Positions 1 to 9,193 of a stretch of 9,320 nt of DNA are shown here, one piece after another (the first letter of the stretch is position 1; the number at the start of each line of letters is the position of its first letter). The notes below the pieces were generated by a model. That model saw nothing but the letters and a program-made list of their open reading frames with translations, was not told the origin of the DNA and did no database searches. Origin of the DNA: a virus (taxonomy: Duplodnaviria > Heunggongvirae > Uroviricota > Caudoviricetes); IMG/VR virus record IMGVR_UViG_2651869781_000010. One strand, written 5' to 3'. Made by a program: the position numbers and the translations under genes.

Positions 1-774
1 TATGTCAAAATTATCAAAATCGAAAGAATTGATTTTCTCATTAAATTCATCAAATTCCGCTTGTTTGATGCTTAATAAATCAGTTAACACCTCTTCTTCA
101 TCACCAACAAAGTTACCTACCTTTTCAATTAACTCTGATAACTTTTGTTTGTTTTTTTCTATTTCGTCACTAAGCTCATAATTACGAATTAAATTAGCAC
201 TATCAAACCCAAGCAGGTGACCTATGTATGGTTTCCAAAAAATGTGTTTTCCAATAAAATCTTTTAATCTAAATACATCAGTATAATCATCTTGCCCACG
301 CAGTGAATAGCCTAAGGCAGTCCGATAATCCCAACGCTTAATTACACTTAAATCAAAAAGTGCATCCAAACACTCTTTCGACCTCTCAAAGGGTAGCTCT
401 GGATAGTCCCATTCACTAACTGCTAAATCAGTAAAGTCTTGATGCTTCTGCTCATGTTTTATAATACTTATTTTTGTAGGTGAGGCAACTGAGCGACGAA
501 TCGTTACATAACCCCCTGAGTTAAGAGCCACTTCTAGATAAAAAACAAAACTCTCAAAAACATTAAAATTTTTAAATAAAAAATGATTTTTATTTTTTTT
601 CTTAAGTAAACAAAAATCTATTAGATCACATAATTTACTTTTCCCTAAATTATGCGTATCTTTGCCTCTATTCTCAGAACGTCTTATTTCACCGATAACT
701 ACATTAAGCCCATCATGAAACTTTATAGGACTAAAAACATCTTTTTTATTAGAGTAAATTTTTGATAGTTTCAT
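1..774 (-). CDS. ABC/SMC-type ATPase, N-terminal 258 codons only (gene continues past window start); candidate ATPase subunit of a Lamassu/ABC-3C-like system
   Basis: Hand translation of the minus strand from ATG at 774..772 gives MKLSKIYSNKKDVFSPIKFHDGLNVVIGEIRRSENRGKDTHNLGKSKLCDLIDFCLL..., which resembles the N-terminus of OLD/ABC-family ATPases (LNVxIGE ... GKS ... LIDF). The frame stays open to position 1. The ATG overlaps the TGA of the upstream 79-aa ORF (ATGA). The P-loop is non-canonical, with about 11 extra residues between GE and GKS. This ORF is absent from the supplied track because it is truncated. Confidence 0.55.
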   Translation of the reverse strand, partial: MKLSKIYSNKKDVFSPIKFHDGLNVVIGEIRRSENRGKDTHNLGKSKLCDLIDFCLLKKKNKNHFLFKNFNVFESFVFYLEVALNSGGYVTIRRSVASPTKISIIKHEQKHQDFTDLAVSEWDYPELPFERSKECLDALFDLSVIKRWDYRTALGYSLRGQDDYTDVFRLKDFIGKHIFWKPYIGHLLGFDSANLIRNYELSDEIEKNKQKLSELIEKVGNFVGDEEEVLTDLLSIKQAEFDEFNEKINSFDFDNFDI

Positions 775-1010
775 TTTTTAACCCACTCAATCAAATCATT
801 TTTAGAATGATATTCGATCAGACCTAATAAATATAACAAACCTAGTGCGGGGTTGAATAAGGAAATAGCTCGCTCATCATATTTCTCAAGTGCATCATAA
901 AGCTCAGCATATTTACCAAATTTAGCTTTGCGTAGCTTTTTCATTAAGAATGCAGCTACCGCCAAGACGGTCAAATCTGGATGTGAATTCTTATTAGGAA
1001 GCAAGCTCAC
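771..1010 (-). CDS. small (79 aa) helical protein, candidate middle component (LmuC/ABC-3C MC-like) of the three-gene system
   Basis: ORF from the track with GTG start at 1010..1008, preceded by AGGAG (complement of 1016-1020) at about 6 nt. It overlaps the upstream gene by 17 nt and the downstream ATPase by 4 nt (ATGA), indicating translational coupling. No recognisable catalytic motif. The functional label rests on size and position only. Confidence 0.55.
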   Translation of the reverse strand: MSLLPNKNSHPDLTVLAVAAFLMKKLRKAKFGKYAELYDALEKYDERAISLFNPALGLLYLLGLIEYHSKNDLIEWVKK

Positions 1011-1941
1011 AGCTATCTCCTATATCACAATTATAATACATATAGTAAACCATTATTCTTGTTAATTTTTTATTTTTGTGCAGATCTGAATCCCTTGCAA
1101 TCAGTAGTTCAATCATCACCTCGAGAATTCGATCAAAATCATGATAATCCTTTTTATAAACACATATTTTAGCTGCAAGCTCATCTGCGCTTTCAATATA
1201 TTTTTTTTGATATGCGCTATTATCAGGATGAGATAAAAAATCCGAAATTTCAGTAATCTCAGCGATTTTTTTCTTAATAAGCTCAGCGTAACTGTTGCTT
1301 AAGTTATTTATTTTATTTTTCTGTAGAAAATCCACTCTAAAAATATGTGATGAAATAGTCTTATCTGTTAATTTACCAAGAGATGTATTTATACCTATAA
1401 TAACTTCTGCCAGTTGTTCTGGATCGATATTAATAAGCACATCGAATGGGTTAAGACCGGCCATTTCAGGCACATGTGGAAATACCTTAAAGTACCTCTC
1501 CATAGTTTCTATCCCAATCAACCCTATGTTGAATTTATCTAACCCGGTTTGGGTACTTATAAAATCCAGAATGTTTTTATTTGCCTCAGCAGGTAGTCGT
1601 CTATTGGCAAACAACAAATAATTATTAATTTTATCTTCATCAATTAATTTTTGTATTTTTGGTAATTCTACATTCAAAACTGAGGTTGTATTACCAAAGA
1701 AATCAGCATCAGAAAATTTTCTGTTATGATTTATAGTATGCTTAGCCTGTATTATGGTTAAACCATCCCATGGCCTGGCTTTACTAGGGTATGCTTCAGC
1801 TACACCATCGAATCTTGAGTCACGTCCCCCATCCCGCCCATCAGCAAAGGATTGAGTTCCTATGCCTAAAAGATCATAGCAAAGGTAAACAACTAGGGTT
1901 TCAAATTGAAATGCCGATAAACTGCAGTAGTCATATTTCAT
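994..1941 (-). CDS. 315-aa protein with N-terminal Mrr-like PD-(D/E)xK nuclease motif plus a C-terminal helical domain of about 200 aa; candidate effector (LmuA-like)
   Basis: ATG at 1941..1939. The N-terminal segment ...SFADGRDGGRDSRFDG...(about 20 aa)...LTIIQAKH carries a DGGxD ... QxK pattern typical of the Mrr catalytic/restriction-endonuclease fold. It is the first gene of three overlapping genes. AT-rich codon usage matches the two downstream genes. Confidence 0.65.
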   Translation of the reverse strand: MKYDYCSLSAFQFETLVVYLCYDLLGIGTQSFADGRDGGRDSRFDGVAEAYPSKARPWDGLTIIQAKHTINHNRKFSDADFFGNTTSVLNVELPKIQKLIDEDKINNYLLFANRRLPAEANKNILDFISTQTGLDKFNIGLIGIETMERYFKVFPHVPEMAGLNPFDVLINIDPEQLAEVIIGINTSLGKLTDKTISSHIFRVDFLQKNKINNLSNSYAELIKKKIAEITEISDFLSHPDNSAYQKKYIESADELAAKICVYKKDYHDFDRILEVMIELLIARDSDLHKNKKLTRIMVYYMYYNCDIGDSCELAS

Positions 1942-1992
1942 GACTGTACCTTATTAAAAGTCAGCAGAATTGGAAAAAACATTAAGTTTGAA

Positions 1993-2022
1993 ATCATATA
2001 ATTGCCACTGAAATAATTTCAA
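1993..2022 (-). promoter_or_regulatory. candidate sigma70 promoter for the cargo operon
   Basis: On the minus strand: TTGAAA (2022..2017), a 16-18 nt spacer, then TATATG/TATGAT (2000..1993), about 55 nt upstream of the ATG at 1941. Found by eye in AT-rich DNA, so a chance match is plausible. Confidence 0.3.
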
Positions 2023-2300
2023 CAATCAACTTAATACTCAAAAATTTCAATGTGTTACTTTACCGCACAATGACGCAATAAACTCTGCAAAAAATCTATA
2101 AACGCATTTTTTTTGACAACTCGCACAGCCCCGCACGCCTGCCCGCTTCGCTTAACAGACTGGTTTTCATGCACCTCATAAATCGTCTCAGAAGCCACCA
2201 CACAAGGGCTTTCTCGTCAAAAATGGTGCATAAGGCTCATGCGTTTTCATGCGCCATAGACATGCACTCATGCGCTCTCAGGCCAGCCAGGGAAAAGGTG

Positions 2301-2328
2301 TTAAAAATCCCGGTACTTGACCGGGATT
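2301..2328 (-). terminator. Rho-independent terminator candidate downstream of the ogr gene
   Basis: Perfect 9-bp inverted repeat AATCCCGGT (2306-2314) / ACCGGGATT (2320-2328) with a 5-nt loop. On the minus strand the stem is followed by TTTAA, giving an AUUUUUAA run. It lies about 20 nt after the ogr stop at 2349. Confidence 0.45.
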
Positions 2329-2348
2329 ACGTGGGCATTTTTTTCTAA

Positions 2349-2621
2349 TCAGACAGGAATCTGCTGACGGCTTGACAGTTTTGACGCGGAGCCATAGCGA
2401 TTGAGCGTTTGCTGTTGTTTTACCGGGGCTTGTGATTTGTCTGGTTCCTGTTCATTGCGCCGGGGTTTCATGATTATCTTATCCACACTCTCCAGTGCCG
2501 TAAATGTGCAGGAACATTCCAGATTCTGGCACTGATACCACGAGCGTTTAACTGACGGAGCTTCATAGGCTGCTGTTCTGGCGTGTGCAACTGTACCGCA
2601 TTCCGGACATTTAAGTGCCAT
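2349..2621 (-). CDS. ogr: Ogr/Delta-family zinc-finger late-gene transcriptional activator (90 aa from the ATG)
   Basis: MALKCPECGTVAHARTAAYEAPSVKRSWYQCQNLECSCTFTALESV... carries the exact C-x2-C-x22-C-x4-C spacing and the AHxRT / YxQCxN / TFxxxESV motifs of P2 Ogr and P4 Delta. The track ORF begins at a GTG at 2630; the ATG at 2621..2619 with AGGAG 8 nt upstream is preferred. Single-domain, not duplicated as in P4 Delta. Confidence 0.85.
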   Translation of the reverse strand: MALKCPECGTVAHARTAAYEAPSVKRSWYQCQNLECSCTFTALESVDKIIMKPRRNEQEPDKSQAPVKQQQTLNRYGSASKLSSRQQIPV

Positions 2622-2626
2622 TAATA

Positions 2627-3178
2627 TCACTCCTGTATATCGTTAATGTCATTCAGGCGTTGCTGAAAACGCAGATGTTGTGCCGGGGTGTAAGAGCCCT
2701 GGCAATCACGAATCATCCCGGGGTCTGGCATCAAACCGGATTCATCCAGGATCTCACGATAATCCCCGGCAATTTCAGGCGGTGTTATTGCCAGCTGGCG
2801 AACCAGAGCACTGCGTAATATACGGGACGCAACGTCAACCCCTCCGCGCCCCTTCAGGAACGGAGCCAGTGCAGATGTCAGGGCTGCCCCATTCGCCTGC
2901 ATAAAATTGCTGAGAGCAGCTTCTGTGCAGGCCTCCATCAATAAATGCTGCGAGTAAATGCATTCGCGAGCAGCACAGTTAATTTGCCATTTCAGCACAT
3001 CCAGACGTTCCCGCAGTAATTCGAGCTGTCGGGCATAATCTGTTGGTTTTTCTGTGGCAGCGAGGAGAGATGCTATCTGTTGTTCAACGGCTTTTCGGGT
3101 CTCACTATGTCCGGCCCACAGAATACGGGCATTCCGAAAACTGGTAAGTGCCTGGTCAGGTGTGCCTCGGGCCGTCAT
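2627..3178 (-). CDS. psu: Psu-like protein (polarity suppression / capsid decoration), 183 aa
   Basis: All-helical 183-aa protein. Segments KWQINCAARECI, FMQANGAALTSALAPFL and YTPAQHLRF resemble P4 Psu as I remember it (KWQVNQAAGRYI, FMQQHGTALAAALAPEL, FTPAQNMIF). Length is close to P4 Psu (190 aa). The ATG overlaps the stop of the upstream gene (ATGA). The comparison is from memory, not from an alignment. Confidence 0.55.
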   Translation of the reverse strand: MTARGTPDQALTSFRNARILWAGHSETRKAVEQQIASLLAATEKPTDYARQLELLRERLDVLKWQINCAARECIYSQHLLMEACTEAALSNFMQANGAALTSALAPFLKGRGGVDVASRILRSALVRQLAITPPEIAGDYREILDESGLMPDPGMIRDCQGSYTPAQHLRFQQRLNDINDIQE

Positions 3179-3918
3179 ACAGCTTTCTCCTTCTCAGCAA
3201 GTTCCTGACGAACCTTTATTTTATGCATAGCTGCCGGAGAGAGTTGATTACTGAAATCCAGACGCGCCGCATAATCCGGGGCAACTCCCGCCAGTTTAAA
3301 CACCGGGTCCTGTTCAGGCATCGCATCGTTAGCCAGAGCCGGTCTGGTGATATGTTTATGAATAAAGTCTTTCAGCACTGTGTCCGGGTCATTAACTGAA
3401 TTCACCACACCCACAACGGCACTGGCTTCCCGGCCCATTGTGGATTTAAGCAGGCTCAGCGTCTGAATAAGCGCTTTTCCATGCGACTGCATAAAATCTT
3501 CCCAGATTTGTTTTGCGCGAATATCCACAAGAATGTTATGCGCGTGGATATACTTTCCGGCTAATTCCGCAGCTTTCTGCGGCAAAAGTGCATTTTCGCT
3601 TTCCTGAGCCGCCAGCAGCTCATCAAAATCCTCAAGCGTTTCTCGTCCCAGCGCAATTTCCGTGCGCAGTTTTTTCATTTCCTTTGAGACCACGCCCTGA
3701 CTTTCACGAAACAGCGTGCGCCACTCCTCATTCAGTGTGTTCGTCGTGGCTTCCATTTCAGCGCGACGCTGGCGGATTGTCGCAATATTATCCGCTGCAG
3801 CTTTCTGCTGACGACGTGCTTCAAGCCATGCGTTTCTGGCTGTGTTCATGGTTTCCAGTGCCCGCTGCGTTACAGCCGGAAAAGTGGAAAGGTTGTTATT
3901 CACTGCGGTGTTGTTCAT
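3175..3918 (-). CDS. 247-aa coiled-coil protein, putative Sid-like capsid size-determination scaffold (assigned by size and position only)
   Basis: ATG at 3918..3916 with AGGAG 6 nt upstream. Helical, charged, Ala/Glu/Arg-rich sequence. It is the first gene of the late operon directly behind the Ogr-type promoter, and P4 Sid is 244 aa. No sequence motif was recognised. Confidence 0.4.
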   Translation of the reverse strand: MNNTAVNNNLSTFPAVTQRALETMNTARNAWLEARRQQKAAADNIATIRQRRAEMEATTNTLNEEWRTLFRESQGVVSKEMKKLRTEIALGRETLEDFDELLAAQESENALLPQKAAELAGKYIHAHNILVDIRAKQIWEDFMQSHGKALIQTLSLLKSTMGREASAVVGVVNSVNDPDTVLKDFIHKHITRPALANDAMPEQDPVFKLAGVAPDYAARLDFSNQLSPAAMHKIKVRQELAEKEKAV

Positions 3919-3952
3919 GACTTCTCCTGTCGGGTTGGTTCGTTACGTCAAT

Positions 3953-4008
3953 TGTGTCGTGGCTGACACAAGCACACTATCGGTGCTCAGTGTGTGGTGG
4001 CTGGCACA
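3953..4008 (-). promoter_or_regulatory. late promoter with two Ogr/Delta-type TGT-N12-ACA dyads (Psid-like)
   Basis: TGTGTCGTGGCTGACACA (3953-3970) and TGTGTGGTGGCTGGCACA (3991-4008) are near-identical, with centres 38 bp apart, and lie 35-90 bp upstream of the ATG at 3918. P2/P4 late promoters use a TGT-N12-ACA activator site centred near -55, and P4 late promoters have a second promoter-proximal site. Confidence 0.6.
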
Positions 4009-4096
4009 ACGGACGCTTGCGGTTATTCAGACGTGGCTATGAAAGCCAGCCAGATAAAAATACCCTCTGTTTCAGTCTGCTTTATGTCCCTGATGC

Positions 4097-4292
4097 GGTG
4101 GAACAGGTGAAACATGTGTTACTGCTTTGTTTTATAAAGCATTTATATACACTGCACCGGTGGAACATCGCGGGTAACAAGGTGGAACAGCGGATTGGCT
4201 GGCGTTACATCTGTTCCACCTCACTATTTCAGAAGGTGGAACAGGTTCAGCCCTGTAAAATACGGTTGTTCCACCTGTTTCACCTGTTACCC
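4097..4292. repeat. iteron cluster, candidate ori/crr-like replication element bound by the primase
   Basis: GGTGGAACA at 4097-4105, 4159-4167, 4181-4189 and 4235-4243. Variant GGTGAAACA at 4106-4114. Inverse copies TGTTCCACC at 4212-4220 and 4267-4275, and TGTTTCACC at 4276-4284. Close to the P4 alpha-binding octamer TGTTCACC. Located in the 400-bp non-coding gap immediately 3' of the primase gene. Confidence 0.7.
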
Positions 4293-4318
4293 TTAATAAA
4301 TAAGACTCACGCAAAGCC

Positions 4319-6991
4319 TTAACCCGGCACCTCGCTGTTGAAGACATAGAGCCTGCGGGGATTCATCTCTGGCGGGCGAATGGTTGTCTGGAGTTTGCCA
4401 TCAGTGGAGGGCAGCAGGTATCCACGATCTACGCACAGACGCGCCACCTTGCGCGGGTCAAATCCCCTGCAGATTTCTTTCCAGCCGGACGGCATGACAT
4501 AGAACGTAGTGACAGCTTCCGTGCCCTGCGCGGTACTGCCTTTCTCCACCCTGCGCCAGCCCACCATATTGCCGGGGCGGTTGCGCTCGTCATACCAGTC
4601 TGCAAAGCGGCTGTACTGATTCGCGGTAAAGAAACTGCGAACCTGCTCCAGTGCGGCGATATCTTCCTGATTGGCGGTGTGCCCGCGATCTTTCAGCCAT
4701 GCGTTCAGGCAGACGCGGGTTGCCCGCAGTGCTTCACCCTCAGGCCAGCCGGTGATACCCAGACGGGTTGCCAGTTCACCTGCCATCGCCACCAGTGCAA
4801 AGCGGTTCACAGCCCGGCCCACCTGATTGCCTGCATCTTTAGGAGTCAGGGCGGCAGCATATTCCTTCATCAGCGATTTTGCCTGTGCCGTTAGTCCGTT
4901 AAGATCAGCGGTCAGTGCTTTCAGCCACTCCCGGAACGGCGAACCGTAGTAGCAGGACGTGGCCCATTCAAGATGCTCTGCCAGAGCCTTGCCGCTGTCG
5001 AAGCCGTGCAGCTCCTCAAAAACGCCAAACTTCCCGGAATCGCTTGGGATCTGGATCATCCTGACTTCCATCCCGGCAAAAGTACGCTCACCGGCCTTTG
5101 CCGCATGTTCGGTCAGAGACAACTCGCCAGTTGAAAAGAACAACAGGCGCCACTGCTTACGGGTACGCAGCTCACCGTCCGTACCGGCACGGCCCTTGCC
5201 CTGACCGTTTGCCAGCATGTAGGCGATATTGCCTGCCTCGCGTCCGTCAACTTCCCGGATCTCATCAAGCATCATGGCGGCATCGTTGCGGCGGCTGGCG
5301 CATCCCTCCAGCGCGTTGCCGGTGGCCCGCCATGTCTGCCAGTAGTCAGGCCCGCCGCAGACGGAGGTTGCCGCTTTCATGGTGGTGGTCTTACCGTCTG
5401 TCGATTCCCCTTTTAGGTGGTAGCCGCCGCCGTCCATACCAACCAGCCGTAACAGTGGTGCAGCAAAGGCCAGGCTGACAGCAAATGCCACGCGGGAGTT
5501 GCCGGTACAGTAGCGGGATACATGCTCCCGCCATTCCTCTGTTGTGCCCGACACGCGGAAATCACGCCCCTGCACGGAAGTGGTCTGGAGAATGACACCC
5601 TCTGCACCTTCACCGCTGACCTCATCCTGCAGGACGTAAACCTGACCATGCCAGCCAGTACGACTGACGCAGGTCACGCGGCGTTCCGGTTTACACAGTG
5701 AGATATATTCCATCAGGCGTGCGCGTGCCTCACCGGTGGTGCTGATATAAGACAGCCCGTTAACCAGCAGTACCCGGCGCAGTTCCTCACCACTGCCGCT
5801 CAGCATTTCCATCGGCATCGCCCAGCGGCGACACTCACCCCACGTATCTTCCCATTCCAGCAGTCGTCCGAAGTTACCGCCATCGGCATCGCAGGTGATT
5901 GCCGTCACGCGCAGCGGGCTGCATATTTTGACGTTCTGGATCTCCGTCTCACCGTTGCGCTGTACCTGCTTTTCATACCAGAGATATTCCTGGGTAAGAC
6001 GGAACCCGTGCGGCAGTTGCGTGCGGCCTTCCCCGCACAGTACCAGACCGTTGCGAAAGGCTTCACGGGCACGGGTAATACCGTGCTCCCGATGAAAGTC
6101 ATTCCAGTCAGCCTTAATCTCTCCTGGTGGCAGGGTCATCCAGCCGCCAACAGCTTTTGCCGCCCGTTCAGCAAAGGCTCTGCCGGGATTCTCACCCCCG
6201 TCCTGAAAATCGTTATCACCGGCGATGATAATTTTTACCTCAGGCCAGCGTGCCCGCAGCGACTGCGCCACATTGGGCAGGTTGCCCGCAGATATGGCAG
6301 CCACTACGCATCCGGCAGTGAGCTGGCTTACCGTCAGCGCCGTAGCGTAACCTTCGGTAATCACCACCTGTACCGGTGGTTCAGACGGTAACGGGCTGAG
6401 CGACACAAACGCGCCTTTCATCGTGCTGCCGGGCAGTATGCTTTTTTCACCCGTCGGGGCGATAAGCTGTGCACCGGTCACGGCTCCGGTGTTGGTCGTG
6501 AGTGGTAACAGCAGGGAACCGGTAGGAAAATCCTTACCGCTGATATGCTGCACGCTTCCGGTCAGAGAGGCCGGGTATCCGGCGAACCCTTTTCCTGTCA
6601 GATAGGCGCTTTCTCCCGTGTGGCTCTCTTTCATCAGCGCCGCCACGGTAAGACCCATGTCGCGTTTAGGGGCTTTTTGTCTGGCAGGCTTAACAGGCAG
6701 TTCCTGCACATCCGGCACATTAAGCACCTGCGCCACCTCCTGCGCAGCCTTTCTGACGCTGTAACCGGTTACGAGCTTAACCAGATCCAGACCGTCACCA
6801 TTGCCACACTGGCTGCAGATCCACGTCCCGCGCCCGTCAAGGTCATCAAGGCGAAAACGATCCTTGCCCCCACATTTCGGGCAGGGACCGTGCCTGCCGT
6901 TTTCAGGTACATCAATACGCAGCATCTGCAGAATAACGGGCCATTTCCCCCGTGCGGCGGCTGAAATCTGCGTAACCGTCTGTATTGTCAT
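4319..6991 (-). CDS. P4 alpha-like primase/helicase (N-terminal zinc ribbon, TOPRIM primase domain, SF3/D5-type P-loop NTPase), 890 aa
   Basis: CPKCGG...CSQCG zinc ribbon near the N-terminus. VVITEGYATALT and IIAGDNDFQDGGENPG are TOPRIM acidic motifs. Walker A GESTDGKTT lies mid-protein. The ATG at 6991 overlaps the upstream stop (ATGA) and has a GAGGGGG Shine-Dalgarno sequence. The iterons lie just downstream. Confidence 0.9.
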   Translation of the reverse strand: MTIQTVTQISAAARGKWPVILQMLRIDVPENGRHGPCPKCGGKDRFRLDDLDGRGTWICSQCGNGDGLDLVKLVTGYSVRKAAQEVAQVLNVPDVQELPVKPARQKAPKRDMGLTVAALMKESHTGESAYLTGKGFAGYPASLTGSVQHISGKDFPTGSLLLPLTTNTGAVTGAQLIAPTGEKSILPGSTMKGAFVSLSPLPSEPPVQVVITEGYATALTVSQLTAGCVVAAISAGNLPNVAQSLRARWPEVKIIIAGDNDFQDGGENPGRAFAERAAKAVGGWMTLPPGEIKADWNDFHREHGITRAREAFRNGLVLCGEGRTQLPHGFRLTQEYLWYEKQVQRNGETEIQNVKICSPLRVTAITCDADGGNFGRLLEWEDTWGECRRWAMPMEMLSGSGEELRRVLLVNGLSYISTTGEARARLMEYISLCKPERRVTCVSRTGWHGQVYVLQDEVSGEGAEGVILQTTSVQGRDFRVSGTTEEWREHVSRYCTGNSRVAFAVSLAFAAPLLRLVGMDGGGYHLKGESTDGKTTTMKAATSVCGGPDYWQTWRATGNALEGCASRRNDAAMMLDEIREVDGREAGNIAYMLANGQGKGRAGTDGELRTRKQWRLLFFSTGELSLTEHAAKAGERTFAGMEVRMIQIPSDSGKFGVFEELHGFDSGKALAEHLEWATSCYYGSPFREWLKALTADLNGLTAQAKSLMKEYAAALTPKDAGNQVGRAVNRFALVAMAGELATRLGITGWPEGEALRATRVCLNAWLKDRGHTANQEDIAALEQVRSFFTANQYSRFADWYDERNRPGNMVGWRRVEKGSTAQGTEAVTTFYVMPSGWKEICRGFDPRKVARLCVDRGYLLPSTDGKLQTTIRPPEMNPRRLYVFNSEVPG

Positions 6992-7371
6992 ACTTCCCCC
7001 TCATACAACGTCACACCGGTACTGCAGAAGTCATCAAAGGCCGCCGGAAGCGTGCGGTACATCTCCGCCATCACTTCACAGCCGCGCGCGGTCAGTACCG
7101 GCGGCGCGGTCAGCAGTGATGGCTCCAGCATGTCAGTCAGCAGTGCCAGCGCGGCAGCGGCGCCCTGCACTTCGCCGTACTCGTTAATCAGTACGCACTC
7201 GATATGCAGCGCAATGGCCATTTCAATACGCTCCACCGTCAGGCTGTGCGGACCATACTGATCACTGCCAGTTTCGTTCAGCATTTTCTGCCGCCATGCT
7301 GAAGCAATAGCCCGCCGGTAAAGCGCGGTGGTCATTTCTACCGGGAAAATGGAAACCTGCGGCTGGTTCAT
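6988..7371 (-). CDS. hypothetical protein (127 aa), primase-operon gene
   Basis: ORF with ATG at 7371..7369, AAGGAGG upstream, and 4-nt ATGA overlaps with both neighbours. GC-rich codon usage matches the primase. No motif recognised. Confidence 0.6.
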   Translation of the reverse strand: MNQPQVSIFPVEMTTALYRRAIASAWRQKMLNETGSDQYGPHSLTVERIEMAIALHIECVLINEYGEVQGAAAALALLTDMLEPSLLTAPPVLTARGCEVMAEMYRTLPAAFDDFCSTGVTLYEGEV

Positions 7372-7652
7372 CTGGCACCTCCTTCAATCAGTGCGCAGCT
7401 GTGTGCAATATCCGTCAAATCTGCCAGCAGGTACTCCATCAGCGCGGCGACACCATGCGCACAGCCAGCGTCCAGTGCTCCGGCCTGAGACGGGTATTCA
7501 GAAAAGAGAAGCTGGAGCATGTCGCAGGCATTTTTTGCGCGGGTCAGCTTTCCGAAACTGTCCTCTGACAACCCATAGGCAAAAGCACCGGTATTGTGTT
7601 TTTCAGGCAAAGTGTGGCCCTGAGCACCGTTGTGCCCGTTTGAAATATTCAT
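7368..7652 (-). CDS. hypothetical protein (94 aa), primase-operon gene (position and size reminiscent of P4 epsilon, unverified)
   Basis: ATG at 7652..7650 with GGAG 9 nt upstream. The stop overlaps the next ATG. No motif recognised. Confidence 0.55.
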   Translation of the reverse strand: MNISNGHNGAQGHTLPEKHNTGAFAYGLSEDSFGKLTRAKNACDMLQLLFSEYPSQAGALDAGCAHGVAALMEYLLADLTDIAHSCALIEGGAR

Positions 7653-7683
7653 CGTGGATTACTCCGTTTTCAGCGGTATTTTG

Positions 7684-8043
7684 TCAGAGAAACTTTGAAT
7701 AGTGACCGTCGTCAGGCTCAGCAGAACGCCATATGCTACGCTCCCGCCAGCGGATAAATAGCACAGACGGATGCAGTGTCAGCGGGCCGGAACCACTACC
7801 GCCTGCAGGAGCTGGTGCAGGCTTAAAGAGCGGTACATCAAACAGGCGCGTATACCGCTGTTCAAACCATGCCAGAGGGCAGGAAGAAAGCTGGTTGTCG
7901 CTGTCATGACGTATCAGCACTTCACAGCTGAATTCAGGATTAACCAGCGCCACAGAGGGCGAGGCTTTAATTAATCGGATAATCGTGACCGTCCAGCCAC
8001 GTTCATGCTGCCAGCGTTCGCCGGGTTGCGGATAATTACGCAT
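7684..8043 (-). CDS. hypothetical protein (119 aa from the ATG), primase-operon gene
   Basis: The track ORF starts at a TTG at 8073. The ATG at 8043..8041 (MRNYPQPGERW...) with GGAGG 5-6 nt upstream is preferred. Contains a Pro/Gly-rich linker (KPAPAPAGGSGSGP). Confidence 0.55.
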   Translation of the reverse strand: MRNYPQPGERWQHERGWTVTIIRLIKASPSVALVNPEFSCEVLIRHDSDNQLSSCPLAWFEQRYTRLFDVPLFKPAPAPAGGSGSGPLTLHPSVLFIRWRERSIWRSAEPDDGHYSKFL

Positions 8044-8212
8044 GTTCACCTCCGCAGGGAATGCGCCCGGCAAAGCTCAGTACATAGTCCGGGGCAAGTC
8101 TGCGCCGCGCTGATCGCTCGTTATCTGCGGTGATCCTTAACATCACCGGACGGGCATTACGTTGACTGCGGTTGATCGCCGCAAATAACCAGGTACACTT
8201 CTCTTTAGCCAT
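8036..8212 (-). CDS. small hypothetical protein (58 aa), first ORF of the primase operon
   Basis: ATG at 8212..8210 with GAGG 9 nt upstream. Translates as MAKEKCTWLFAAINRSQRNARPVMLRITADNERSARRRLAPDYVLSFAGRIPCGGEHA. Its TAA (8038..8036) overlaps the ATG of the next gene by 8 nt. It is the 3' part of the 244-aa track ORF 8036..8770, whose upstream portion looks spurious. Confidence 0.35.
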   Translation of the reverse strand: MAKEKCTWLFAAINRSQRNARPVMLRITADNERSARRRLAPDYVLSFAGRIPCGGEHA

Positions 8213-8287
8213 CTTCGTTGCCTCATATAGCGGTTTGGTCAGAAGCCCGGTTAGTGTTGCTGCACTGTCGGGCTTCGCACTCACAAG

Positions 8288-8380
8288 GTGAATCGCACCT
8301 TCACTTTTAAAGCTACCCTTAAGTGAATCGCACTTCAAGTCTTTTATTATCATTTTTTTTGCGTATACTGAATCGCACCT
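8288..8380. promoter_or_regulatory. divergent control region: three direct repeats (candidate operators) plus the -10 element of the plus-strand regulator gene
   Basis: GTGAATCGCACCT (8288-8300), GTGAATCGCACTT (8323-8335) and CTGAATCGCACCT (8368-8380). The third overlaps a TATACT -10 (8364-8369) located 30 nt upstream of the ATG at 8400, which has AAGGAG at 8386-8391. The region separates the primase operon (minus) from the RHH-like gene (plus). Confidence 0.5.
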
Positions 8381-8399
8381 AACGCAAGGAGATCCAGTA

Positions 8400-8585
8400 A
8401 TGGCAACGGGTTCAACTAACAACAAGTCGCAGCAACTTAATGCTCGTTTCCCACATGATGTAGTTGCAGAATTAGAAAGCAACCTTGAAGATGGGGAAAC
8501 GAAAGCGCAATTTATTGTTACCGCTGTAAAAGGCGAGATTAAACGCCGACAGCGCAGGAAAAATAAGCTAGAGCAAGTAAGCTGA
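8400..8585 (+). CDS. small DNA-binding regulator, probably ribbon-helix-helix type (61 aa)
   Basis: ATG at 8400 with AAGGAG 8 nt upstream. The segment QLNARFPHDVVAELESNLEDGETKAQFIVTAVKGEI has a strand-helix-helix pattern typical of Arc/CopG-like proteins, followed by a basic tail (KRRQRRKNK). A terminator follows. Confidence 0.55.
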   Translation: MATGSTNNKSQQLNARFPHDVVAELESNLEDGETKAQFIVTAVKGEIKRRQRRKNKLEQVS

Positions 8586-8648
8586 ATAGAGAAGCGAATA
8601 GACGTTCTCTCAGATTCCATGCTAATTTCAGTAAGCGACAATATTTTT

Positions 8649-8680
8649 AAGCCCACAAACTCATTTTGTCGGGCTTTTTT
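8649..8680 (+). terminator. Rho-independent terminator after the RHH-like gene
   Basis: Stem AAGCCCACA (8649-8657) / TGTcGGGCTT (8667-8676) with a one-base bulge and a 9-nt loop, followed by a T-run (8675-8680). It sits between the convergent RHH-like and AlpA-like genes. Confidence 0.5.
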
Positions 8681-8681
8681 A

Positions 8682-8912
8682 TTAGTGATTTTCATGCCGT
8701 TCACCACGAGAGGCATATATTTGCTCTTGAATCCAGTGATCGACTTCGCTTTCAACAAATGAAATTGCACGAGTTCCTATTTTCACCGGGCGGGGAAATG
8801 TATTGTTTGAAAGCTGTTTGTAAAGCCATGCCTTGCTACGCTGAACGCGTCTTAACACCTCTTTTGCTGAGATAAGGGTCTGATTCTCTGAAAGGTTGTT
8901 TGCATATTCCAT
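8682..8912 (-). CDS. alpA: AlpA/Vis-family phage transcriptional regulator / excisionase-like protein (76 aa from the ATG)
   Basis: ISAKEVLRRVQRSKAWLYKQLSNNTFPRPVKIGTRAISFVESEVDHWIQEQI matches the AlpA/Vis helix-turn-helix signature (...S.STIYR....G.FP.PIKLG.R...W...E...WI). The track ORF begins at a GTG at 8957. The ATG at 8912..8910 with GGAG 8 nt upstream is preferred. Confidence 0.8.
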   Translation of the reverse strand: MEYANNLSENQTLISAKEVLRRVQRSKAWLYKQLSNNTFPRPVKIGTRAISFVESEVDHWIQEQIYASRGERHENH

Positions 8913-9193
8913 CTTGTTACTCCGTGTTCTGCTTAAGTTCACGGTGACTTTAAACACTGAAAAAAAGTCATTCTAGTGATAATGGAATCTATTAAGACAA
9001 ACACTGATTCTATTGAAATGTGATGATTTCCACTGAAAAAAAAGAAACGATATTCATATGAAAGAACACAAGAAGAAGGAAATGCACAAATATAAAATCA
9101 ATAAAATTCATATAGATAGGATGAAAAATCAAAAAAATCATACGTCAAAAGGTATTATTACGTATTATCGATTCATATTACTCAGGAATTACC

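Follow-up and report, generated by a model that had tools for sequence, protein, structure and literature searches.

What kind of boundary lies near position 2100 of a 9,320-nucleotide stretch of viral DNA (IMG/VR record IMGVR_UViG_2651869781_000010), where an AT-rich block meets GC-rich DNA, and what does the AT-richness mean? We refer to the whole of this stretch, at its full length, as the window. The window is a P4-like phage satellite integrated at a tRNA-Leu gene (leuX) of E. coli. In our view it is highly probable that the first 2120 or so positions belong to the P4 defence hotspot already known to adjoin the cohesive-end site (cos), which here holds an operon of the ABC-three-component (ABC-3C), or short type II Lamassu, type. 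The P4 hotspot is already well described, and the structure found here is not new.

The break is real and sharp. In a sliding-window profile the content of guanine plus cytosine (GC) is 26-38% up to position 2100 and 44-63% between 2200 and about 8300, and the best single change point by maximum likelihood is at 2119, GC being 32.3% on its left side and 55.2% on its right (right side taken to 8000). The log-likelihood ratio (LLR) reaches 138 over the whole window and 166 over 1-8000, which is far outside a null made from 200 shuffles of 50-bp blocks (mean 8, maximum 30). A second change point is found at 8299 (LLR 60). Mean GC is 55% over 2119-8299, against 32.3% for 1-2119, and is 36.8% to the right of 8299, dropping to 29% from 8948 on. 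GC at third codon positions (GC3) is 23-33% for the three genes in the AT-rich block, which we call the cargo, compared to 46-67% for delta, psu, sid, alpha and DUF5375. The AT-rich block extends beyond the left end of the window: contig L007, which like L008 and L009 is 99.99% identical to the window, has about 1.0 kb more up to the stop codon of the cargo ATPase gene.

An earlier note, made from the sequence alone, had described positions 1 to about 2100 as AT-rich (about 30% GC) and abutting GC-rich DNA, and had proposed a sliding-window profile; the measured values agree, and the discontinuity is present at about 2100-2200. The same note had the GC-rich DNA running from 2100 to 8600. The GC-rich block exists, but its right end is at about 8299. 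The suggestion that the break coincides with the end of the late-operon terminator was not upheld, since the terminator-like hairpin is at 2306-2328 and the break lies about 180 bp farther, at the outer edge of the cos flank.

To the right of the break is the satellite backbone, with the following genes:

2349-2630, minus strand: delta, zinc-finger late activator of the Ogr/Delta type (Pfam Ogr_Delta, 7e-16).
2627-3178, minus strand: psu, polarity suppression protein (Pfam Psu, 2e-44).
3175-3918, minus strand: sid-like gene, a Psu paralogue (Pfam Psu, 1.8e-9, in the C-terminal half), in the position of P4 sid.
4319-6991, minus strand: alpha, primase-helicase (Pfam Zn_Ribbon_Prim, Toprim_3 and DUF927).

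These matches bear out the P4-like satellite backbone that had been recognized earlier. The P4 core gene set (alpha, sid, psu, delta and integrase) is present, the integrase gene (int) being known from the L007 and L008 copies, which carry int and AlpA at the tRNA-Leu(CAA) end of the full element. L007 reads tRNA-Leu, int, ..., alpha, sid, psu, delta, cargo, attR, and its element closes at L007:13194 with 21 nt that repeat the 3' end of the tRNA; beyond this point the L007 and L008 sequences part ways. The flanks in L008 encode members of the Pfam families KdgM, NANM and SASA, followed by two small Phage_integrase-family genes; on the E. coli map these match nanC, nanM, nanS, fimB and fimE. 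It is the combination of the P4 core genes, the tRNA-Leu(CAA)/int end, the end with the 21-nt tRNA repeat and the flanks in L007 and L008 that identifies the window as a P4-like satellite at leuX. By megablast, the backbone is present in 859 of 5426 complete E. coli genomes.

The compositional boundary is also a boundary of homology. The 40 E. coli matches listed all begin at window 2126-2128, and an alignment of seven satellites is near-invariant from about 2119-2126 through the delta stop codon, and unrelated to the left. The GC change point therefore places the cos-side boundary no more than 7 bp from the homology break. The features of the boundary region are as follows:

2022-2118, no strand: AT-rich junction (29% GC), found elsewhere only where a satellite of this kind carries this cassette (L001, L007-L010).
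2119-2141, no strand: conservation boundary and putative cos cohesive end (change point 2119; homology start 2122-2126; alignment of seven satellites).
2142-2300, no strand: conserved cos-flanking block, nearly invariant in seven satellites.
2301-2328, minus strand: terminator-like hairpin 3' of delta, with a 9-bp stem AAUCCCGGU/ACCGGGAUU and then a U-run.

We infer that cos is located at 2119-2141, at the outer edge of the conserved block, because conservation ends there and because the P4 hotspot is directly adjacent to cos (Rousset 2022, PMC9122126). The block contains two GTTTTCATGC repeats 80 bp apart (2163-2172 and 2243-2252; direct repeat family D2), which are kept in 7 of 7 aligned satellites and are possibly terminase recognition elements. 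At its outer edge, the reverse complement of 2121-2139 is the 19-mer GGCGTGCGGGGCTGTGCGA. This bears a partial resemblance to the 19-nt cohesive end of P2 and P4, but there is no match to that sequence within 3 mismatches. A blastn search of the delta-cos region gave no match in the phage collection, where P4 was not found. The delta hairpin (2306-2328) folds with -13.4 kcal/mol (z -2.4), and its stem is kept in the seven satellites, with changes mainly in the loop; a simple terminator scan made no call here, and folding was used instead.

The sequence to the left of this boundary differs from one satellite to another. In 11 sampled satellites, nine distinct cargos are found at the same position:

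L001: ABC-3C cassette with middle component 8 (MC8), as in the window.
L002 and L100: retron St85.
L003: SEC-C/YecA-like protein.
L004: IetAS, PADLOC-confirmed.
L005 (O157:H7): ABC-3C system with MC2.
L006: Hachiman.
L099: DRT3.
L101: insertion sequence (IS) IS66 and a hypothetical protein.
L102: three hypothetical proteins.

The cos-side flank is conserved in about 850 records, while on the side of the attachment site (att) the roughly 90 bp adjoining attR are common to the leuX-type relatives L002, L006 and L100. L003 has a backbone 99.53% identical over 2126-8264, with a synonymous divergence (dS) of 0.006 in alpha, and yet a different gene in the slot, which implies that the cargo was swapped recently relative to the divergence of the backbones. 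The comparison of this locus across related satellites, as the earlier note had suggested making, thus finds different cargo between conserved flanks. The view of the three-gene operon as a mobile module also stands, given the other cargo on the L003 backbone and the operon copies in three other elements.

These are the properties of the P4 defence hotspot, which is situated between psu and int, right beside cos, and occurs in more than 300 arrangements of genes (PMC9122126), and in which swapping is rapid between elements with identical cores (PMC13586616). The backbone genes, the position, the putative boundary at cos and the variable content between conserved flanks are the same, as are the occurrence of cassettes in either orientation and the fast swapping between near-identical cores, and there is no essential difference. 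The arrangement differs in that att lies between the slot and int here, so that the slot of the prophage is at the far (attR) end and not beside int, as it is in L006, where the gene order is int, cargo, delta. The slot would then lie between cos and the att end, flanked by cos and the delta terminator on one side and by about 90 bp beside attR on the other. Whole cassettes would be replaced between these conserved flanks, probably by recombination among related elements, and the replacement would leave a sharp joint between a backbone of 55% GC and an insert of 30-36% GC. We also considered whether the AT-rich block could be P4's own gop/beta/cII region. This was rejected, as the proteins are of ABC-3C families and the block is absent from backbones that are 99.5% identical.

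Judged by its sequence, the cargo forms an operon complete in itself, in which three genes coupled in translation are preceded by a promoter-like region of their own. It has the architecture of an ABC-3C, or short type II Lamassu, system:

1942-2021, minus strand: upstream region that moves with the cassette, with a ribosome-binding site and a sigma-70-like promoter.
994-1941, minus strand: first cargo gene, putative effector (LmuA-like), 315 aa, with an N-terminal PD-(D/E)xK Mrr-like nuclease domain and a C-terminal domain (CTD) of the CTD12 family.
771-1010, minus strand: second cargo gene, middle component MC8 (LmuC-like), 79 aa (Pfam MC8, 1.7e-14; MC6, 1.9e-10).
1-774, minus strand: third cargo gene, ABC ATPase of the DUF2326/YydD family (LmuB-like), of which the N-terminal 258 codons precede the window edge that cuts it; full length 595 aa.

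The predicted promoter (TTGAAA, 18 nt, TATGAT, from 2022 down to 1993) is a consensus match only. The stop codon of the MC8 gene and the start codon of the ATPase gene share the letters ATGA (771-774), and the first 17 nt of the MC8 gene lie within the end of the effector gene. The effector matches Pfam CTD12 at its C-terminus (4.6e-51), and residues E14, D37, D41 and Q65-A-K67 of its N-terminal domain are invariant in 28 homologues. Both the MC8 and the MC6 match exceed the curated cut-offs, and the RefSeq name of the L001 copy of the second protein is 'ABC-three component system middle component 8'. Full-length copies of the ATPase (L007:11168-12955 and L001:6987-8774) match Pfam DUF2326 (8e-22), and the best PADLOC model is PDC-M68B (1.8e-46, profile positions 2-576 of 581). 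In 25 homologues of the ATPase the invariant residues are G44-K45 (Walker A), followed by [ST], and Q161, H526-D527-G528, E531, D534 and H581. The ATPase gene has 31% GC and 23% GC3. NCBIfam has no model for the three cargo proteins. The order effector (about 315 aa), middle component (about 82 aa), ATPase (about 597 aa) is found in 32 of 32 homologous loci, from many phyla, and the ratio of nonsynonymous to synonymous divergence (dN/dS) is 0.04-0.10. It is concluded that the cassette is under strong purifying selection.

The closest described systems are short type II Lamassu, namely DdmABC of V. cholerae (equivalent to LmuACB) and LmuACB of Salmonella enterica. They share with the cassette the order effector, middle component, ATPase; an N-terminal PD-(D/E)xK nuclease joined to a CTD of the CTD6-12 group; a middle component of the MC2-8 group; and an ATPase that has about 600 aa and a deviant Walker B. 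They differ in that the nuclease here is of the Mrr type rather than Cap4, with CTD12 and MC8 rather than CTD7 and MC3, and in that the ATPase here belongs to DUF2326/YydD, has no zinc hook and shows no sequence-detectable likeness to solved LmuB chains. A second comparison is with YydB-YydC-YydD of B. subtilis (PDB 9a6c, an integrative YydD-YydB model), whose ATPase is in the same Pfam family; source annotations name the ATPase homologues 'YydD (DUF2326 family)'. YydB is the best Foldseek match of the effector model, with a weak E value, and the yyd operon is likewise AT-rich, and is xenogeneic-silenced. YydB has 481 aa compared to 315 aa for the effector here, and the yyd locus is chromosomal in a Gram-positive host.

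Several observations weigh against the identification as a Lamassu-type operon in the cos-adjacent slot. PADLOC 2.0 files the ATPase as candidate PDC-M68 and not as LmuB; PDC systems are 'guilt-by-embedding' candidates (10.1101/2024.01.29.577857). The PADLOC LmuB model matches only the N-terminal part of the ATPase (1.4e-8), and the effector has no match to any PADLOC LmuA model. Among 350,542 chains, the top two Foldseek matches of the effector are B. subtilis YydB and Lamassu LmuA, with weak E values of 0.02-0.03, and a 28-sequence effector profile found only chance coiled-coil matches in the PDB. The same is true of the ATPase sequence and a 25-sequence profile, which found no solved LmuB or Rad50 chain. 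The Walker A motif of the ATPase is without the first glycine of Gx4GK[ST], its Walker B is hhYHDG, compared to the hhhhD[Q/S/T/E] reported for short Lamassu, and there is no CxxC zinc hook in its 595 aa. Short LmuB proteins have zero or more copies of the hook (10.1101/2025.04.02.646746), so that its absence does not exclude Lamassu membership. On the side of the slot, the cargo was inspected in 11 of about 850 E. coli loci, and the assignment of cos comes from position and partial resemblance only: the 19-nt P2/P4 cohesive end is absent within 3 mismatches from the window and from L097. Finally, a P4-borne 'Lamassu variant', which may or may not be the window cassette, gave no protection against the phage panel used (PMC13586616).

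The limits of the cassette can be set by its relatives. In L007, the 165 bp 3' of the ATPase stop are found in other copies of this cassette only, the 90 bp after them belong to the att-proximal part of the satellite, and attR is about 240 bp 3' of the stop. Diverged copies of the operon are found in L098 (another P4-like satellite), L095 (a degraded P4-like satellite) and L097 (the cos-proximal hotspot of a P2-like phage). Homology to the L097 copy runs from 80 bp 5' of the effector ATG through 7 bp past the ATPase stop, and the -35 TGAAA and the AAGGTACAGT-ATG motif are largely conserved between the contexts. A blastn search of the cargo against plasmids gave no match and no plasmid-borne copy. 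Neither DUF2326 nor the RefSeq accessions of the L001 proteins occur in the truncated text of the Rousset 2022 supplements.

These limits bear on how the cassette arrived. A transposon, IS or integron-type element that targets the slot could have brought it in, given that other satellites have IS in the slot (IS66, L101) or near int (IS1, L002). However, the cassette neither contains nor adjoins a transposase or integron integrase; no inverted or flanking direct repeats occur in L007:9550-13300; the homology between contexts ends a few bases past the ATPase stop and 80 bp upstream, without terminal repeats; and transposable elements are almost absent from these hotspots (PMC13586616). Because the cassette has no terminal repeats around it, the idea was rejected, and we consider it extremely unlikely.

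Within E. coli the cassette is rare, being present in 2 of 5426 complete genomes. L001 has cargo 94-96% identical to that of the window on a backbone only 91% identical; dS is 0.19-0.20 for the cargo and 0.27 for alpha. L001, from avian pathogenic E. coli (APEC) O78:H51, represents the only complete E. coli genomes with the cassette. Its psu/sid region is unalignable to window 2622-3197, and a single psu-like gene of 762 nt (L001:10621-11382) stands in place of psu and the sid-like gene.

The copy in L097 (7925-10962) lies between Phage_GPA and the portal gene, in the P2-like hotspot (the old/tin locus, gpA-gpQ), and is 33% GC within a phage of 50-57% GC. Its effector is 81% identical in amino acids and 75% in nucleotides. 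The 3' end of the operon faces the portal gene in L097, whereas in the satellite it is the promoter end that faces cos; cos in L097 is presumed, as in P2, to be on the portal-gene side. The two cassettes are too diverged for a recent exchange between helper and satellite, but the cassette uses both slots. Only one close sharing of defence genes between P2 and P4 has been reported (PMC13586616). The record that holds L097 (GCA_901482455.1, CABEEN010000019.1) is labelled Campylobacter jejuni. Erwinia phage ENT90 and the peduoviruses of Yersinia and Escherichia match the prophage at 72-75% identity, and it is probable that the record is either mislabelled or contaminated. Some of the relatives are damaged. 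In L095 (7093-8000) and L096, alpha is cut to 149 aa and sid, psu and delta are deleted, with the cassette almost directly next, and in L098 (9168-10955) the ATPase is split into 79 and 425 aa. Pseudogenes are rare in these hotspots (PMC13586616).

What, then, does the low GC mean? The slot cargos sampled are all 30-36% GC, apart from IS66, in backbones of 49-56%. Since this holds regardless of the cargo family, low GC marks the slot and not a particular donor. The cassette copies in L095, L097 and L098 are saturated at synonymous sites relative to the window (proportion of synonymous differences, pS, 0.73-0.82) and yet have GC3 of 25-33% inside backbones of 46-57% GC, which argues that the low GC is long-standing in mobile elements of Enterobacterales and is not a signal of fresh import. 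Low GC is therefore best understood as a lasting trait of the hotspot cargo pool, and the immediate source of the cassette is most likely another P4-like satellite. A text search of PMC9122126 and PMC13586616 found no discussion of the low GC of the cargo.

The earlier note had instead proposed recent acquisition from a low-GC donor. The mobile cargo and the recent swap (seen in L003) hold up, but the donor does not, given the GC3 kept by the saturated relatives. Taken at its strongest, this proposal makes a low-GC organism the direct and recent source of the block, so that the block's AT-richness is a donor imprint that has yet to ameliorate. The contrast of 32% with 55% GC, the GC3 of 23-33% and the rarity of the cassette in E. 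coli are all as it would predict. So is the wider family, in which gene GC tracks host GC (r = 0.68). The nearest species-level relatives (Vibrio, Alteromonadaceae, Colwellia, Rahnella and Motiliproteus) have gene GC of 32-40%, which equals host GC only in Alteromonadaceae and Colwellia (33-37% for the genes, 37-38% for the hosts), so that a deep origin in low-GC Gammaproteobacteria is plausible. But these relatives are only 52-56% identical in amino acids, and so are not recent donors; the other slot cargos are equally AT-rich; the saturated copies keep their low GC3; and the cargo dS of L001 is close to that of alpha, which fits transmission within the satellites. We consider a recent import of this kind improbable.

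A second alternative, which complements the reading as a standing property of the cargo pool, is that AT-richness is actively maintained, either by H-NS quieting a toxic operon or by an AT-biased mutational or selective regime. It would account for a GC3 that stays at 25-33% at saturated dS under purifying selection and for the uniformly low GC of the slot cargos, and also for the observation that members of the family average 7 GC points below their local flanks (33 genomes). There is a parallel in B. subtilis, where the DUF2326-family operon yydBCD is bound and repressed by Rok (PMC8894471). Silencing of the cargo block by H-NS is by analogy plausible. Against this, gene GC equals or exceeds flank GC in some hosts, and the same pattern would arise without selection if genes flowed continuously within an AT-rich pool. 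We regard active maintenance as a possibility to be taken seriously, though tentatively.

The function proposed for the cassette follows from the systems that it resembles. ABC-3C is equivalent to type II Lamassu, in which the effector is kept sequestered until DNA ends are sensed, whereupon it is released and tetramerises (10.1101/2025.06.23.660979, 10.1101/2025.03.14.643221, 10.1101/2025.04.02.646746). A dimer of LmuB together with LmuC holds the monomeric effector, and an A1B2C1 complex is known for the Vc, SalEnt and Bc systems. On its architecture alone, the cassette most likely has a Lamassu-like mechanism. The ATPase dimer and the middle component would keep a single effector inactive through its CTD, until an invading phage or plasmid presents aberrant DNA ends or intermediates of replication, which cause its release. 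The released effector would oligomerise through its CTD, its nuclease domains would cut DNA, and the infection would be aborted; the host of the satellite, and indirectly the helper, would thereby be protected against competing phages. The complex, the trigger and the anti-phage activity are thus all predicted by analogy.

The operon might have a different role, such as plasmid restriction, interference with the helper, or stabilisation of the element as an addiction module. There are precedents for this: the V. cholerae Lamassu DdmABC was initially discovered as a system that eliminates plasmids, the slot of the P4 reference holds gop/beta, described as likely toxin-antitoxin-like, and the subtype of the cassette is only a PADLOC candidate. 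However, validated defence systems make up the overwhelming majority of what the slot holds, over one third of cloned hotspot systems were phage-protective (PMC9122126), the success rate among putative hotspot systems is high (PMC13586616), and the architecture is that of Lamassu, for which phage defence has been shown. A role other than phage defence is accordingly quite improbable.

The far side of the backbone also carries exchangeable DNA, with these features:

8264-8299, no strand: second boundary, between the GC-rich core and a second exchangeable module of lower GC (change point 8299; end of L003 and L004 homology).
8400-8585, plus strand: YlcI/YnfO-like gene, in the second lower-GC module.
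8682-8957, minus strand: AlpA-like gene, in the second lower-GC module; int is beyond the window.

Homology to L003 stops at 8264 and to L004 at 8287, while L002 keeps matching to 9320. The GC-rich core, 2126-8264, is thus bordered on both sides by exchangeable modules of lower GC. An open reading frame of 244 aa at 8036-8770 (minus strand) is very likely spurious; in related records annotation covers no more than the final 58 codons (8036-8212), given as an Icd-like cell-division inhibitor. No Rfam family was found in the window at gathering thresholds, and no P4 CI/C4-type immunity RNA between the Icd-like and AlpA-like genes.

Past the end of the window, between AlpA and int, there is a gene that varies in size and sequence between satellites, with 30% GC in L007. 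Its copies are:

L007:2021-2659, 212 aa.
L003:13766-14647, 293 aa.
L004:13840-14663, 180 + 106 aa.
L095:4291-5115, 274 aa.
L098:797-1627, 276 aa.

The proteins from these five satellites have no Pfam or PADLOC match. This position may be a second variable accessory locus of P4-like satellites.

The composition of the window alone re-finds the defence hotspot of P4-like satellites, which is a useful sanity check but adds little that is new. The modest additions are three. Every slot cargo sampled has low GC (30-36%), whatever its family. The cassette has GC3 near 26% while its synonymous sites are saturated in enterobacterial elements, which counters the equation of AT-richness with recency. 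And a diverged copy of the cassette occupies the hotspot of a P2-like helper. A more far-reaching view, which we think unlikely but worth stating, is that the REase-CTD12/MC8/DUF2326 clade is a mechanistically distinct Lamassu-like branch in the cos slots of P4-like and P2-like elements, with low GC selectively maintained. If so, the low GC would reflect the upkeep of H-NS-type silencing and not a donor imprint, and if the clade senses DNA ends, then elements that make cos ends in each packaging cycle would need a way to avoid triggering it themselves. The cassette is a catalogued but uncharacterised Lamassu/ABC-3C subtype, and a reasonable candidate for phage challenge.

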